DNA from: Eledone cirrhosa
Taxonomy: Eukaryota
Assembly: GCA_964016885.1 (NCBI GenBank)
Contig: OZ024746.1
Location: 19,716,001-19,780,000, forward strand
Reading direction: 5' to 3'
DNA length: 64,000 bases
Shown: positions 7,941-38,300 of the stretch, piece after piece
Layout of the letters: each line of letters begins with the position of its first letter
Position numbering within the stretch: the stretch's first letter is position 1
Made by a program: the position numbers and the translations under genes
The notes under the pieces: model-generated
Told to the model about the DNA's origin: nothing
Databases searched by the model: none
The model's input: only the letters and a program-made list of their open reading frames with translations

Positions 7941-8210
7941 AGTGAGTTCAAATCCCGCCGAGGTTAACTTTGCTTTTCATCCTTACGGGGTTGATAAAAT
8001 AAAGTACCAGTAATGTACTGGGTAATTGCTGGCCTTGTGCCTAAAGAAGAAACAATTATTACTATATAGAGTTATGGCCCTTTATGGTCTGAGTTCAAAT
8101 CCCGCCGAGGTTAACTTTGCCTTTCATCCTTACGGGGTTGATAAAATAAAGAACCAGTAATACACTGAGTTTTTGCTGGCCTTGTGCCTAAAGTAGAAAC
8201 AATTATTACT
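7941..8210 (+). mobile_element. two tandem 5'-truncated family-A SINEs
   Basis: gagttcaaatcccgccgaggttaactttgc(c/t)tttcatccttacggggttgataaaataaag...gaaacaattatt occurs twice. Confidence 0.85.
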
Positions 8211-9210
8211 ATATATATATATATATATAATTATATACACAGATTTATTTATGCATACATACACATGTATTCATGCATAATAGCCACATGTATTCATACG
8301 TAATACACACATATCTACATGCATATATACACAAGTGTATTCATCCATAAATGTACACATTTATCCATACATATATATTCACATTTATTCCTGCATACAT
8401 ACACACATGTATACACACACACATATATGCATATATTGGTACATAAATACACAATGTATTCTGATATCACACACAAACACACCGAGACCCACCCACACAC
8501 ACGCATGCAAATGACTTCAATTCCCTAGTGTGTTAGGTAAAAGGGAACAAGGACAGTCCTGCAGCTTCTTAATTTCCTCGGTTTCTGTTGTAATCATCAA
8601 GATAAGTATTAAGAATACTTCAATATCTCCATTCATAGAGTTTTTGTTGCTTGCTTCTTTGTTTTTAATTGTTGTTGCTGTTATTGTTGTACACAGAGAT
8701 TATATGGCTGAAGTATCATCACCTTGACAACAAATTACAGTTAATGGAAATCTCTCTTTGCAAATAATAATAATGTTGTTGTGTTCTTACAAGTATTACT
8801 GTCAGCAATGTGAATGATCCAGGTAACAATAGAACTGACCAACTAGAAAAATAACCAAGTTTATTGGAGTGCTGTATAAGTGTGTGTGTATGAGAGAGGA
8901 AGGGGAGAAGGGGAGAGAGAGTTAGAGATAACAAGGGGGAGAGAAAGATAGGGAGAGATACAGGGAGTAAGGGAGAGATAGAATGACAGAGAATGATATA
9001 TATATAGAGAGAGAGGGGGGGAAGAGGGGGAGAGGAGATAGGGAGAGGGGGGAGAATGTGAGAAAATGCATGTATGAATAGAAAGTATAAGATATTGAAA
9101 AAGTGTATATGAAAAGGTGCTGTGTGTGTGTATATATATATATACTAACACACATACATATATATATATAGAAAATAAGAGATAAAGGAAGGAGAGAAAG
9201 TGATATATAG

Positions 9211-12475: not shown

Positions 12476-13964
12476 CTAAACCAGCATACCATTTAATAGC
12501 ATCTTCTGTCATCATCTCTTACAACCAACCATAGCTATCTTCTTTGTAATGAATTTACTGTCTGACACCTAAACCTAACTGAGGTACTATAATATTTATC
12601 TTCTCATCCTCCCAACCTGGATTAAACTGTTTAATTGTACCTCCTTGGAAAAGCCTTTTTTTTTTTAACTTGCTTACTCCATAGTTTTTTTTTAGTTTAT
12701 TTTCCTATCGAGAATTAGCAACAATTTAAATCAAACATTAACCCTATTAACTTCAAGTTATTCCTAATTATCCAACTGTCAATGAACATTTATTTTACAA
12801 TTAGTTTCTTAGACTAACAAATAATAATGAAAAAAAAAAATGTTTATGCTTAGCTTTCTATAATGGTTTCTGGTTTAGGCACAAGGCCCACAATTTTTGA
12901 GGAGGAGAAAGTCAACTCCAATGCCTTACTGGTGTTTTATTTTATCGACCCCATGAGGATGAAAGGCAAAATTAAATTCAGCAGGATGTATAACTATATG
13001 CTACAAAGCACGTTGTGTGACACTCTACCAGTTACTGCTAATCCACTGCCCTAGCTTCCTATAATAGAAGTTACCCATGCAATATAACAACCACCACCTC
13101 CACCACACAAAAAAAAGCCTTTAACAAAAACAGAGCAAAAAATAATCCTGAATTGGTAGTAATTCAAAACAGTTTTTTTTTTAAATATCTAATTTGTATT
13201 TGTATAAAAAAAAAAATCTTTGAAATCCAGCAATAACAAAAAATAGCAACAATAACAACAACATCTATGGAACAATTTACTGCTGAACTGTTCCATAGTA
13301 GTTAGTTACATGTGTTATTTTATCAAGGAGGTGTTTGCTGCTGAATACAAACTTCAGAGCAGTTTGCTTTTCTCTGAATTTACAAAATGGCTAAATATTT
13401 TCTGTAGTAAAATTAAAACTATCAAATTTCATCAAGTTACTCCCATTTCCTACTTTTCTTTTAACCCAGGTCCTAATGAAGCAGCAAGGAAAATTTTTTA
13501 AAGAAAACCCAAGAGGTTAACCAGTATGTATGTAGGTGTATGTGTGAGTGTGTTTGTATAAATATGTGTATGTATATGTAAATGTGTGTGTATGTATACA
13601 AATGTGTGTGTGTATATATATATATGTGTGTGTATATGTATATATGCATTTATAAATGTGTATGTGCATATATAAATTTCATCAACATCATCGTTTTTAT
13701 GTTCGTTTTTTTCACACTTGCATGGGTTGGACAGGCCCTTGAAATGTGTGTATGCATATATGTATGTGTGTATGTGTATGTATATATATATGTGTGTGTG
13801 TACACATGTGTATGCACACATGTACAAAGAAATAGTTTTAAAATACCAAGAGAGTATTTTACAGCACTAAACAATTCAGCAAGCTAAAGAAATATTCAAC
13901 GTGGAATTGTACGGTCAGTTTACACTACTATTCCTTAATCACTAACATTATTAATTCAAATCCC

Positions 13965-14478
13965 GGTGGATTGGCAGTATCGGTAGAGAGTCGGACACCA
14001 TGCTTTCCAGCATAGTTACGTCCCTTTACGATCTGAGTTCAAATCCCGCCGAGGTTGACTTTGCCTTTCATCCTTACGGGGTCGATAAAATAAAGTACCA
14101 GTAATGCACTGGGTAATTGCTGGCCTTGTGCCTAAAGTAGAAACAATTATTAATTCAAATCCCAAAGGGCGGTGGATTGGCAGTATCGGTAGAGGGTCGG
14201 ACGCCATGCTTTGCAGCACAGTTACGTCCCTTTACGGTCTGAGTTCAAATCCCGCCGAGGTTGACTTTGCCTTTCATCCTTACGGGGTCGATAAAATAAA
14301 GTACCAGTAATACACTGGGATAATTGCTGGCCTTGTGCCAAAAGTAGAAACAATTATTAATTCAAATCCCGCCGAGGTTAACTTGGCCTTTCATCCTTAC
14401 GGGGTCGATAAAATAAAGTACCAGTAATACACTGGGATAATTGCTGGCCTTGTGCCAAAAAGTAGAAACAATTATTAA
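13965..14478 (+). mobile_element. stack of three young family-A SINEs (two full-length, one starting at the B box)
   Basis: Head ggtggattggcagtatcggtagag (A box), gagttcaaatccc (B box), Nin/Deu-like gactttgcctttcatccttacggggtcgataaaataaagtaccag, and an (ATT)-like tail. Confidence 0.9.
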
Positions 14479-14859
14479 TTATACTTACTATTCAATACCA
14501 TAATTAATTAGTAATCTCATACTAAATAATAAACTACTTTAGAAATAACTTGTTTTAGTCTTAAGAGAGATTTCCTTGTTAAATCTAAGTGATCAGACAG
14601 ATTCTCAAGAGGTATTGAAGTTTGTATAAACATTCGCTACTGAGGAAATATTGTTGTCATAATCACAACTTTTTTTTTATGGTTAGAACAAACAATACTT
14701 TAGGATTTTCTATAATTTTGTAAATTAATCAACTTCTTCCCTTAGAGCAAAAAAACATTATCTGAGAATTAAAAACTATCAAGTGTTGTTGGCAAGTCAA
14801 AAGATTTAATTATATGAAATGATTTGGAGCATTGAGTGTATAAATATTTCATAAAATTG

Positions 14860-22607: not shown

Positions 22608-22800
22608 TATAGGAATGAATAGGACCCCGACGGCTGAGCTCAAGCCATTTCGATGGCTAATTAGTCCAGAATTAGCTGTCGAAACGGCTTGAGCTCAGCC
22701 GTCAGGGTCCTACTCGTTCCTATTACCCACTCTACTTCCCTAAGTATTGAGTACTTTGGTGCGTTATGGTCCACCTGGTTCCTTACCACATTTCCTTCAT
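22608..22800 (+). mobile_element. short element carrying the 3' half of an HHR, with a 5' fold-back palindrome (22608-22723)
   Basis: aattagctgtc-GAAA-cggcttgagctcagccg-TC-agggtcc; the 5' side is the reverse complement of this sequence instead of CUGANGA. Confidence 0.6.
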
Positions 22801-22857: not shown

Positions 22858-23046
22858 ATATCAGATTGGAGGTGGTAAAAACCAGTTAGACCATTACTCA
22901 CCAGAGTACTCAATACTTGGGGTAGTAGAGTGGATAATATGAAAAAAGTCAGGACTCCCACGGCTGAGCTCCGGCTGTTTCAACAACTAGTTCAGATTTA
23001 GCTGTTGAAATGGTCGGGCTCAGCTGTTGGGGTCCTGAATCTTTTT

Positions 23047-23047: not shown

Positions 23048-23084
<37 letters not shown>

Positions 23085-23492
23085 AAATAAGATTTTGCTT
23101 CAAGCATAGCTTTATACAATATGTATAGAAATTTCGTATTTCTAAAGAAATATGGTGTTAGGAAGCTGTAGCTATGCAAACACTGGGGCTAACACCCTCT
23201 GGTGGTGTCCAGCAGAAGCAAGGGGGACAACCGTCTGAGGTTTGACTGGCCTTCGTCAGGACGGTCCCTCCCACTACTTGCTACTGCTGGACTTAAAAAC
23301 AGTCGAGAATATATAGTTTTCTTGTCTGTGTAAATGAGGTGATTAATCTCATTTGCATATGAAGCTGCATAAGTTGGCGCAACTTATAATAGAAAAGAAA
23401 TAGGATTTCTCTTCAAGCATAGCTTTATACAATATGTATAGAAATTTCGTATTTCTTTAGAAATACGAAATTTCTATACATATTGTATAAGC
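23085..23492 (-). mobile_element. 313-bp structured unit bounded by ~68-bp direct repeats, with a degenerate HHR (retrozyme-like non-autonomous element)
   Basis: Direct repeats 23085-23152 and 23398-23465; serial hairpins; minus-strand gggaccgtc-CTGACGA-aggccagtc-aaa-cc-tca-gacggttgtccc at 23224-23268. Confidence 0.55.
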
Positions 23493-23648
23493 AAAGGGAT
23501 ATTTAATTTGTTGGTAATTCAACAAATATATATATTTATAACTGATTCGACACGCTCTCTTTCCCTTCTTTCCTTTTACTATCCAGGAAAAACTTGAACT
23601 GTTAAGATCGTCTTCCTGGATATGTCAATATTTATAAAACAAACTTTG

Positions 23649-23710
23649 TATTTTATCTGATGAGAGCGTTCCAAAGTTTTGGTACCCTTGAAATATATAT
23701 AATTGAATAA
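23649..23710 (+). ncRNA. minimal type I hammerhead motif in a PLE-like 3' tail
   Basis: attttat-CTGATGA-gagcgttccaa-agtt-ttggtaccctt-GAAA-tatata-TA-attgaat. Helix II 9/11 paired, palindromic helix III, AATAAA directly downstream. Confidence 0.65.
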
Positions 23711-23749
23711 ATATGGTTTTATAAATATAGTTTCCATTTATTAATATCA

Positions 23750-24077: not shown

Positions 24078-24124
24078 CACACATATATAAAATATTAAAT
24101 AAGAGAGTTCAAAGTTTTAATTAT

Positions 24125-24313
24125 AATTGTTTCTACTTTTGGCACAAGGCCAGCAATTACCCAGTGTATTACTGGTACTTTATTTTATCGACCCCGTAAG
24201 GATGAAAGGCAAAGTCAACCTCGGCGGGATTTGAACTCAGAATGGCAAGGGCCGTAACTCTATCCGTCAAAGCATGGCGTCCGACCCTCTACCGATACTG
24301 CCAATCCACCGCC
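24125..24313 (-). mobile_element. young family-A SINE with TSD
   Basis: Flanked by a direct repeat aagttttaattataattg (~24112 and ~24316). Confidence 0.9.
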
Positions 24314-28387: not shown

Positions 28388-29499
28388 TATGTTGATGATA
28401 TAAACATCGTAGTTAAAACACCCCCAAGAGAGAACAGTCAGGAATTAGAGAAAAACACAATGGAAAGCATCCAGCAAATAGCTAACTCCATCCACCAGAG
28501 TATTAGAGTTACTATAGACTACCCAAGCAAACACCCCAACCATCGATTACCTGTACTAGACACAGAGCTCTGGTTAGATACCATTAATAACAAAAAACAA
28601 ATCCTCCATTCCCATTATGCCAAACCCATGACTTCCAAATATCTGATCCACCGAAACTCAGCTGTTTTGGACCATACCAAAATCAACATACTGATTGCGG
28701 ATTTGGTACGGGTGATGAGAAACGTGTCCCGCATGTGCAACCCCGAAGAACTAGAGAGACACATACAACACTTCATCCACCGTATGCAGTTCTCTGGTTA
28801 CAATCAGAGAGATAAAATCAGAGTGTATAGAGGAGCCAGAACCAAATGGGGAAAAATGGTAAATAGTGACACAAATGGGACCTGCTCCTTGTATAGGAGC
28901 AAATTTTGGAATAGAATTGAAAGAACTAAGAATAAAGCTAATAGAATAAACTCATGGTATGATAGCAATAAATACCAGAGTGTAATGTTCATCGATACAA
29001 CCCCTAGAGGTGAATTAGCTTACAAAATTAGAAGGGCCCTAGATAAACATAAACTCAATATTAAGATAGTAGAAAGACCAGGTACCTCCATAAAAACACT
29101 TTTCAAAGACCTCCCTGTATAGATAAAAAATGTATAATCTGTAAATTAAGCCCCCATATTAACTGTAAAACTAGAAATGTAGTATATAGCATAAGATGTA
29201 CTGAAGGACAATGTAGAGATAAAAATATAGTGTACATAGGTGAGACAGCTCGTAGTATAGGGGAACGGATAAATTAACACTGGTGAGACCTTCAAGATAG
29301 TAAAGAATCATCTGTACTCTACCAACATGCTAAAATAGAACATAAGGGTAAATTAGAGAACATAGAAATAAAAATAAAATCTACACACAGAAAAGACGCA
29401 ATGTTTAGACAAATCACAGAGGCAATAAACATAAATGAATTACAACCAAAATTAAATAGAAAACATGAGTGGAACAGCAACATCACAACCTACAATTGA
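28388..29499 (+). pseudogene. PLE reverse transcriptase (motif 5 to thumb) + C-terminal GIY-YIG endonuclease, disrupted
   Basis: In frame from YVDDINIVV (28388) through ORF 28460-29122. After a frameshift near 29100: CIDKKCIICKLSPHINCKTRNVVYSIRCTEGQCRDKNIVYIGETARSIGERIN*HW*...QHAKIEH...RQITEAININELQPKLNRKHEW. Stops at 29275 and 29284. Confidence 0.9.
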
Positions 29500-37039: not shown

Positions 37040-38300
37040 GTTATACTTTGGGAGGGTCATGTTGCCAATAAGAAACACACGCACCAGTTGCTTTCACTTC
37101 AATTTATTATAATAAATTTATAAATTTAGGAATTTATAAATTTCCGGTTGGTTGGTTGGTTCCACAACCAGATGATTGTTTATATATTGTCAAAGTTCTT
37201 TCGTCACACATTCTGTGACCTCTTCAGTGACTGGGGGATTCTTTTCTTTGTTTTTGTGCCTCTCCTTTGTTCTGTCCTACGCCATCTTGTTTTTGTGTGT
37301 GTTGTGTGCTTAGTTTGTGCATGTGTTACATCCAGGTGTCTGTGTGTGTTTATATTTGTTTATTTATTTGTTTATTTACATGCTACTGGTTGGTTGTTTG
37401 TTCTATGTGCGTGTGTGTTTTCATTTTATCCTTAATTGTAAGTTGTGATGTTGCTGTTCCATTCATGTTTTCTATTTAATTTTGGTTGGAGTTCATTTAT
37501 GTTTATTGCCTCTGTGATTTGACTAAACATTGCGTCTTTTCTGTGTGTAGATTCTATTTTTATTTCTATGTTCTCTAATTTACCCTTATGTTCTATTTTA
37601 GCATGTTGGTAGAGTACAGATGATTCTTTACTATCTTGAAGGTGTCGCCAGTGTTCATTTATCCGTTCCCCTATACTACGAGCTGTCTCACCTATGTACA
37701 CTATATCCTTAAGAATATAGTGTACATATAAAATAGAACATGCTAAAATAGAACATAAGGGTAAATTAGAGAACATAGAAATAAAAATAGAATCTACACA
37801 CAGAAAAGACGCAATGTTTAGTCAAATCACAGAGGCAATAAACATAAATGAACTCCAACCAAAATTAAATAGAAAACATGAATGGAACAGCAACATCACA
37901 ACTTACAATTAAGGACAAAATGAAAACACACACGCACATAGAACAAACAACCAACCAGTAACATGTAAATAAACAAATAAATAAACAAATATAAACACAC
38001 ACAGACACCCGGATGTAACACATGCACAAACTAAGCACACAACACACACAAAAACAAGATGGTGTAGGACAGAACAAAGGAGAAGCACAAAACCAAAGAA
38101 AAGAATCCCCCAGTCACTGAAGAGGTCACAGAATGTGTGACGAAAGAACTTTGACAATATATAAACAATCATTTGGTTGTGGAACCAACCAACCGGAAAT
38201 TTATAAATTCCTAAATTTATAAATTTATTATAATAAATTGAAGTGAAAGCAACTGGTGCGTGTGTTTCTTATTGGCAACATGACCCTCCCAAAGTATAAC
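37040..38300. mobile_element. inverted (head-to-head) dimer of PLE 3' halves, ~1.26-kb palindrome
   Basis: 37040-37706 is the reverse complement of PLE ~29225-29889 (GIY-YIG open: YIGETARSIGERINEHWRH); 37737-38300 is the forward copy of ~29323-29889. Confidence 0.93.

Follow-up and report, generated by a model that had tools for sequence, protein, structure and literature searches.

The window analysed here is a stretch of 64,000 nucleotides from Eledone cirrhosa (GenBank assembly GCA_964016885.1, contig OZ024746.1, positions 19,716,001 to 19,780,000), and locus coordinates given without a label are those of the window. An (AG)12.5 microsatellite at 23060..23084 forms the target side of an insertion whose first arm, arm A, has its RNA sense on the minus strand. 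Arm A starts at 23085 and comprises 1.2 units, namely one full monomer (23085..23397, minus strand; 90.7% identical to the natural copy L004) and a second, 5'-truncated monomer (23398..23457, minus strand). Its 3' end, which is the fixed site A of the family, runs into the microsatellite and is exact only to ~5 nt because of T/C microhomology at the border. A short inverted arm B of ~30 nt follows (23458..23489, plus strand) and ends in the site-B zone, at reference position ~295; the two arms are joined at a small palindrome native to the family. The right border is marked by an adjoining insertion of another, younger hammerhead repeat (23489..23748), which is a separate element. We conclude that this stretch is one decayed two-armed insertion of a dispersed tandem repeat family with a unit of ~322 nt.

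An earlier note on this DNA had seen ~68-bp direct repeats 313 bp apart and had taken them to be part of a ~1.2-mer of a repeat family. Both observations agree with the anatomy of arm A: the repeats span 75 nt (23078-23152 and 23391-23465), are 89% alike at a spacing of 313, and are created by the truncated second monomer. The period is 313 nt because the family's 321-322 nt are shortened here by an 8-nt deletion. The (GA)n setting that the note described holds on the left side (23060-23084), whereas the right end abuts the other hammerhead repeat at ~23489. Likewise, the terminal fold-back is present in the sequence but is the second cDNA arm (B) rather than part of the monomer.

As had also been proposed, the body is highly structured and non-coding. 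The 313 nt fold much better than shuffled sequence (z of -6.9 on the minus strand and -5.8 on the plus strand), and the longest stop-free frame in a natural multimer of 744 nt is 77 aa, indicating that the family is non-coding. A long bulged stem (23207..23292, minus strand) is the extended helix I, with the hammerhead at its apex. This stem and the hairpins tgtaaatgag/ctcatttgca and ataagttg/caacttat, all listed in the note, are present in the window copy, but ggtgttag/ctaacacc is not a hairpin of the family: the 8-bp match results from three substitutions that only this copy has.

The family was searched for in the host genome (3.0 Gb, 1796 contigs). The window stretch yielded 3200 first-look candidates, of which the 40 scored were 88-91% identical. 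A 22-nt end motif occurs exactly 1421 times (control, 0) and is exact in 65 of 137 segments not selected on the motif, and from these two figures we estimate ~3,000 end segments. Two main subfamilies can be told apart, and at near-fixed columns the copies deviate from the commonest letter by ~4.4%. Most are dispersed 0.1-2.8-mers with inverted arms; the units are arranged head to tail, in arms of up to ~900 nt, and two intact cores stand head to tail at 10 loci. The expectation that the sequence would be multicopy and occur as head-to-tail multimers is thus borne out, the longest case being an array of ~11 units of subfamily II that ends at site B (G000:C2:83920630-83923934, L214-L220). Within this array, units five apart share a deletion, and units 3/8 and 4/9 differ by 5.7% and 4.2%, compared with 8-15% for most other pairs; part of the array was later duplicated as DNA. 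Seven near-identical copies lying ~60-105 kb apart (L046-L052, G000:C1:143.35-143.80 Mb) represent a segmental duplication and were counted once. There are no LTR-type ends, the direct repeat being a partial second unit of random length, and no poly(A) or repeat tail lies within the unit. A search of the unit for a simple pol III box gave no match, and none of the indexed public RNA runs searched was listed with the family sequence. In its DNA the family has what characterizes a non-LTR retrozyme: a non-coding tandem monomer in the range of 150-450 nt with one hammerhead per unit.

Family positions (r) are counted on the natural copy L004, which is 322 nt long, has its RNA sense on the window minus strand and has the cleavage site after r170. 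In aligned copies the hammerhead reads, in order, helix I, CUGANGA, a 4-bp helix II, a 7-nt loop, GAAA, UGCA, AUA and helix I again, where UGCA is palindromic and AUA is the triplet; family copies thereby carry the CUGANGA, GAAA and NUH required of a type I core. Helices I, II and III comprise 6 bp, 4 bp, and 1 bp plus the palindromic tetraloop, respectively. Helices I and II form in the MFE folds of natural copies, and the hexamer of helix III pairs with itself at -4.7 kcal/mol. At its base, helix II has A-U or U.U where G-C is usual. Both subfamilies are fixed for the complete core and its three helices. Exact 33-nt cores number 827 in the host genome (209 and 618 in the two subfamilies; controls, 0), and among 152 units taken from loci selected without regard to the core, 90 keep all 11 core letters plus H17, so the restored CUGANGA...GAAA...UH that the earlier note had proposed as a check is found. 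Judged from the letters, the family bears a complete canonical type I hammerhead motif with a one-pair palindromic helix III and is predicted to produce a self-cutting RNA. Its layout matches that of the canonical metazoan type, which requires a dimer for cleavage (PMC4209133, PMC7229834).

The window copy departs from this pattern. Its hammerhead remnant (23231..23264, minus strand) retains helix I (23264-23260 / 23235-23231), CUGACGA (23259-23253) and helix II with the 7-nt loop (23252-23238), but 8 nt are missing between 23238 and 23235, comprising GAAA and most of helix III. Deletions of at least 5 nt in the core occur in 4 of the 152 units, the window copy included. Alignment with family copies also shows that the earlier parse of helices II and III was wrong; the core had been read as 'aaa-cc-uca' lacking G12, whereas the aaa belongs to loop II/helix II. 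The copy is indeed predicted to be unable to cleave, as had been suggested, but because the 8-nt deletion took GAAA and helix III rather than for want of G12, and in itself it amounts to a dead fossil. At 23236 public contigs stop matching and then read on as a complete core; the three contig sets come from one sample, perhaps the assembly's own, so this reading is not independent support.

A search of the window with Rfam found no hammerhead at the gathering cut-off and none at E<=10, and the Rfam hammerhead models gave no match at E<=0.5 in six family loci, at least one of which (L030) has a damaged core. RF00163 does detect another hammerhead family in the host genome. Other Rfam matches in the window and the family were set aside as microRNA-like noise.

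Variation among lineages bears on both the fold and the core. Fifteen lineage-level variable sites avoid stems, with a mean pairing of 0.335 vs 0.593 (p=0.0005; 45 single-copy folds); they were taken from 22 by dropping the hypermutable columns r94, r253 and r291 and four indel columns, with N7 retained. An alignment-based fold (RNAalifold), only 14-32% paired on these decayed copies, did not support stem avoidance (p 0.35-0.57). Within the core only N7 varies at the lineage level: in subfamily I, N7 is C42 T12 A8 G3, while G8 is G63 A3. We infer that selection on structure and core acts among active templates.

Insertion anatomy was read from 226 arms. Site A (~r322+5) is the end point of 116, and another 75 terminate in zone B (r265-303, with most at r282-295). 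These two fixed 3' ends lie ~38 nt apart, at ~118 and ~156 nt past the cleavage site, and delimit what in Penelope-like elements (PLEs) is called the tail. Dinucleotide repeats, chiefly TA, are entered by 103 of the 116 A ends and 62 of the 75 B ends, compared with a background of 5%; those at A ends are TA/TC/CA runs. None of the 226 arms ends at an internal TATATAT, a better match to the target, and the start sites are therefore not set solely by target likeness. The 5' ends are random, giving arms of random length with polarised ends. Because insertion ends lie in (TA)n/(TC)n, these are microsatellites in which target-site duplications are not readable. Tail-only pieces of 37 nt, cut at r286-287, were seen at L061, L115, L119, L148 and L273; all except L115 have a common upstream sequence, probably another repeat that inserted later and split the copies.

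Back-to-back arms, mostly meeting within a few bases, are present at 44 of the 73 loci that were selected by their A end and at 39 of 57 fresh loci selected by the core alone; an arm exceeds one unit at 28 loci in each sample. In the A-end sample, 24 of 75 pairs were unclassifiable; of the remaining 51, 47 combine an A arm with a B arm (25.5 expected), and a re-analysis with more loci gave 48 of 54. The 57 core-chosen loci gave 25 of 26 (13 expected; 13 of 39 unclassifiable). With this near-obligate A+B pairing, the known one-ended tail becomes a rule that can be counted, and the rule predicts two coordinated priming events.

The family thus combines a tail at one end only, partial tandems and an inverted 5'-truncated copy, the marks of PLE insertion. 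PLE insertions are described by Craig et al. 2021 (PMC8557442) as having partial tandems, an inverted 5'-truncated copy, a (TA)n bias and a tail of 30-40 bp at one end only. In the anole Poseidon element PAc, the tail is the segment between two internal sites at which the RT begins, and cleavage and extension occur on both DNA strands (Frangieh et al. 2024, PMC11167929). EN+ PLEs likewise have two internal RT starts downstream of a hammerhead and AT-rich or (TA)n targets (PMC8557442, PMC11167929). The Eledone family differs from them in having no ORF and in its hammerhead, which is canonical with a long helix I rather than of the minimal PLE type; in addition, both of its start sites have a short TA/T likeness to the target. 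PAc uses its start sites in vitro without strand preference, whereas strict A+B pairing was counted here.

Autonomous elements with RT and GIY-YIG are plentiful in the host genome. Long stop-free frames with an ADKG motif occur at L181:3809-6622 (938 aa), L182:1688-4219 (844 aa) and L183:875-4162 (1096 aa); a scan of L181 and L183 found RVT_1 in both and GIY-YIG in L181. One family, D (RVT_1 + GIY-YIG), has a hammerhead with a 4-nt palindrome, followed by site B ~120-126 nt and site A ~165-171 nt after the cut, and its member L196 is an A+B two-arm insertion in (TA)n with the same layout as the retrozyme family. Judged by geometry, family D is the best partner candidate. The two share only a 9-nt word near site B, which could be due to chance. 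Young members of family D (L184, L185, L188, L194, L196) have the hammerhead 380-410 nt past the stop codon. A third hammerhead family shows A+B at all 10 loci with both ends visible, out of 17. This family (L221-L238) scores above the RF00163 cut-off, is >1.3 kb long and has two 3' ends ~109 nt apart, with A+B arms in (TA)n.

No sequence-related autonomous PLE was found among 50 GIY-YIG loci (the 30 best and 20 with long frames; 150 scored of 10,596 candidates). The 92 free 5' flanks available from 205 loci have no shared ORF upstream of the repeat, and no RT-EN ORF joined to the repeat, as an autonomous PLE would have, was found there. L206 was considered as an autonomous copy and rejected, since a SINE-like stretch separates its upstream GIY-YIG piece from the repeat.

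Taken together, we regard the stretch, with high confidence, as a decayed two-armed insertion of a non-coding 322-nt type I hammerhead repeat, i.e., a non-LTR retrozyme, likely copied by a PLE in trans. The family is a new one with unusually clear PLE integration footprints; as far as DNA allows these features to be checked, it has all those of a retrozyme and behaves as a non-autonomous PLE. Mobilisation by PLEs, which the earlier note could only cite, is now backed by the A/B ends and A+B arms. In the mechanism that we propose, the PLE protein would nick both strands of a (TA)n tract, and each nick would prime reverse transcription from a separate internal position on the RNA. Both cDNAs would then extend toward each other and join via a few matching bases, and both arms would derive from one RNA molecule or one source locus. 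Less firmly, the one-pair palindromic helix III may allow dimeric cleavage by two hammerheads within a tandem transcript, and the monomer may be ligated into a circle around which the RT rolls to give arms of more than one unit.

Other origins of the repeat appear much less probable. The copies could be 5'-truncated pLTR ends of an autonomous PLE not found here, the tandem being the pLTR's own partial duplication. The hammerhead with its palindromic helix III, the tail, the inverted arms and the TA targets are all PLE features, and two other hammerhead families of the host genome are long, non-tandem 3' ends. However, all arms beyond one unit, up to ~900 nt, continue into a further unit, as does the array, and the 92 free flanks share no coding continuation, the GIY-YIG piece at L206 lying behind the SINE-like stretch; we consider this origin unlikely. 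Mobilisation of a SINE by a LINE, with L1-type twin priming as the source of the 5' inversions, is very unlikely. LINE-moved elements do have a fixed 3' end, random 5' truncation and inversion, and the copies fit this description. Twin priming, however, inverts a non-overlapping upstream part, whereas here the arms overlap in sequence and have fixed start sites separated by 38 nt; the tandem units and the lack of a poly(A)/repeat tail or simple pol III box match also argue against a SINE. Least probable of all is a repeat spread as DNA (MITE, Helitron-type or satellite) that resembles a hammerhead by chance. Inverted arms and TA targets are also seen in MITEs, and part of the ~11-unit array was duplicated as DNA, but random arm lengths, polarised ends and a fixed core with three helices in both subfamilies are not expected of such a repeat; a similar descriptor matched 3 times across 30 random 64-kb windows.

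Within the preferred reading, mobilisation by a PLE in trans, the nature of the template is the point on which explanations diverge. Arms cross the cleavage site (0 stops vs 80 crossings; in a second sample 2 stops in 86, with ~3 expected), and a cleaved linear monomer is therefore an unlikely template. Three patterns of 5' ends did not hold up: a pile-up at the cleavage site was an artefact of the window's deletion and vanished with an intact reference, a depletion around it (1/201 in r164-184) was not repeated in the core-chosen sample, and a pile-up at sites A/B, considered as a circle signature, was mostly a reference-edge artefact, the residual excess being weak (45 of 167 stops, p=0.03). 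Subfamily letters agree at 497/566 comparisons within arms (0.88) and 708/818 between arms (0.87), where 0.50 is expected. Rare letters are common to both arms at a rate of 0.0038 vs 0.0008 expected (26 of 78 loci) and to tandem units at 0.0062, about half of these from two loci. The shared subfamily and rare letters indicate one template molecule or one source locus, although later conversion may contribute. In 98 partner arms, the stop rate climbs past ~270 nt from 0.05-0.19 to 0.27-0.5 per 40 nt.

A circle accounts for the crossings, the shared letters and the rise in stop rate, and a uniform uncut multimer does so equally; between a circle and an uncut multimer as template we see about even chances. 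The multimer reading differs from the best explanation in the template alone: the same PLE insertion would use an uncut linear read-through transcript of tandem loci, with the hammerhead a passenger or acting outside insertion. We give this close to an even chance. Ribozyme mutants of the anole element leave insertion unaffected, and the in vitro reaction mainly uses unprocessed RNA (PMC11167929). Multimers of 2-3 units and the one array of ~11 exist as sources, and a rising stop rate after ~270 nt is also expected if sources are limited in length. At L111 a G12 change is common to both arms; this is one case, and ~9 of 43 shared letters are expected by chance, but if the change was in the template, the template's core was dead, a hint against ribozyme processing. 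On the other side, successive units of one arm are as similar as the two arms are, which a circle predicts and a linear template explains only with very uniform units. Moreover, the 92 free flanks show no common 5' flank carried along, and lineage variation spares the core apart from N7. A more specific proposal is that each insertion arose from one ribozyme-made 322-nt RNA circle primed twice at once: a PLE dimer would nick the two strands of (TA)n, one subunit would start at A and the other at B, and both would roll past the ligated junction until the arms meet back to back. We hold this tentatively, as less likely than not. If true, such a double-primed circle would give direct evidence from the genome that PLEs mobilise retrozymes from circRNA templates, as has been proposed, and would add an obligate A+B asymmetry to the PLE mechanism.

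Comparison with described retrozymes places the family among known metazoan forms. Metazoan non-LTR retrozymes (axolotl Rtz331/353, mussel, coral; Cervera and de la Pena 2020, PMC7229834) have the same non-coding tandem monomer of 170-400 nt with low GC and likewise one canonical type I hammerhead per unit. HHR_Amex1 has the same single-pair helix III with a palindromic tetraloop, and U.U at the helix II base is found both in HHR_Amex2 and in a sub-lineage of the Eledone family. Those retrozymes form long arrays, whereas the Eledone family consists mostly of dispersed copies with inverted arms. An RNA circle has been proposed for retrozymes (PMC4209133, PMC7229834), and dimeric PLE hammerheads are reviewed in PMC6765202. 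As mover of animal retrozymes, PMC7229834 names PLEs only as a strong candidate; the word 'inverted' is absent from its main text as available, and here the tail and the A+B arms are seen directly. On the question of which enzyme moves animal retrozymes, the Eledone family, with its thousands of copies, shows the PLE footprints directly for an RNA of 322 nt that encodes no protein, and this short RNA is a natural minimal PLE substrate.

Frog and other vertebrate retrozymes have been tied to PLE pLTRs by homology, with the mechanism left open and invertebrate lineages barely sampled (Li, Clavereau, Pollet 2026, 10.64898/2026.07.22.740005). They share with the Eledone family the co-occurrence with EN+ PLEs, the monomers, dimers and rare multimers, and a similar unit length; their link to PLEs is homology and co-occurrence, whereas here it is insertion anatomy and no homologous pLTR was found among the loci searched. 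Non-autonomous elements of Chlamys such as MRC1 (PMC8557442) have the same status as PLE derivatives, with pLTR-like and head-to-tail insertions; unlike the Eledone family, they resemble their autonomous partner in the 3' end, and most have no hammerhead. The literature searched held nothing on the family, on octopus retrozymes or on A+B pairing; supplements and Repbase/Dfam, outside this search, may list the lineage.

Several other elements lie in the window. The neighbouring repeat at 23489-23748 has 2533 candidates in the genome and is ~96% identical to its best relatives. It is a two-arm A+B insertion of its own, with a minus-sense arm at 23489-23550, a plus-sense arm at 23555-23748, a type I hammerhead at 23651-23707 (plus strand) and a tail of ~90 nt. 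The element measures at least 1.1 kb, shows no tandem arrangement and was not seen joined to an ORF. An assignment to the 3' end of PLE family E was rejected, since in L191 the repeat does not run on from the ORF. Two decayed pieces that resemble the GIY-YIG of PLEs lie at 29155-29463 (plus strand) and 37441-37773 (minus strand). Related near-perfect palindromes of ~105-115 bp in TA tracts, MITE-like in form, occur at 22609-22723 and 22943-23045, and similar sequence also flanks family copies L088 and L099. Inverted 64-nt arms (22717-22780 / 22880-22943) surround a TA tract, with similar flanks at L098 and L100. Finally, SINE copies, which we take to be tRNA-like and some of which are tandem, are found at 7943-8215, 13964-14480 and ~24100-24300.
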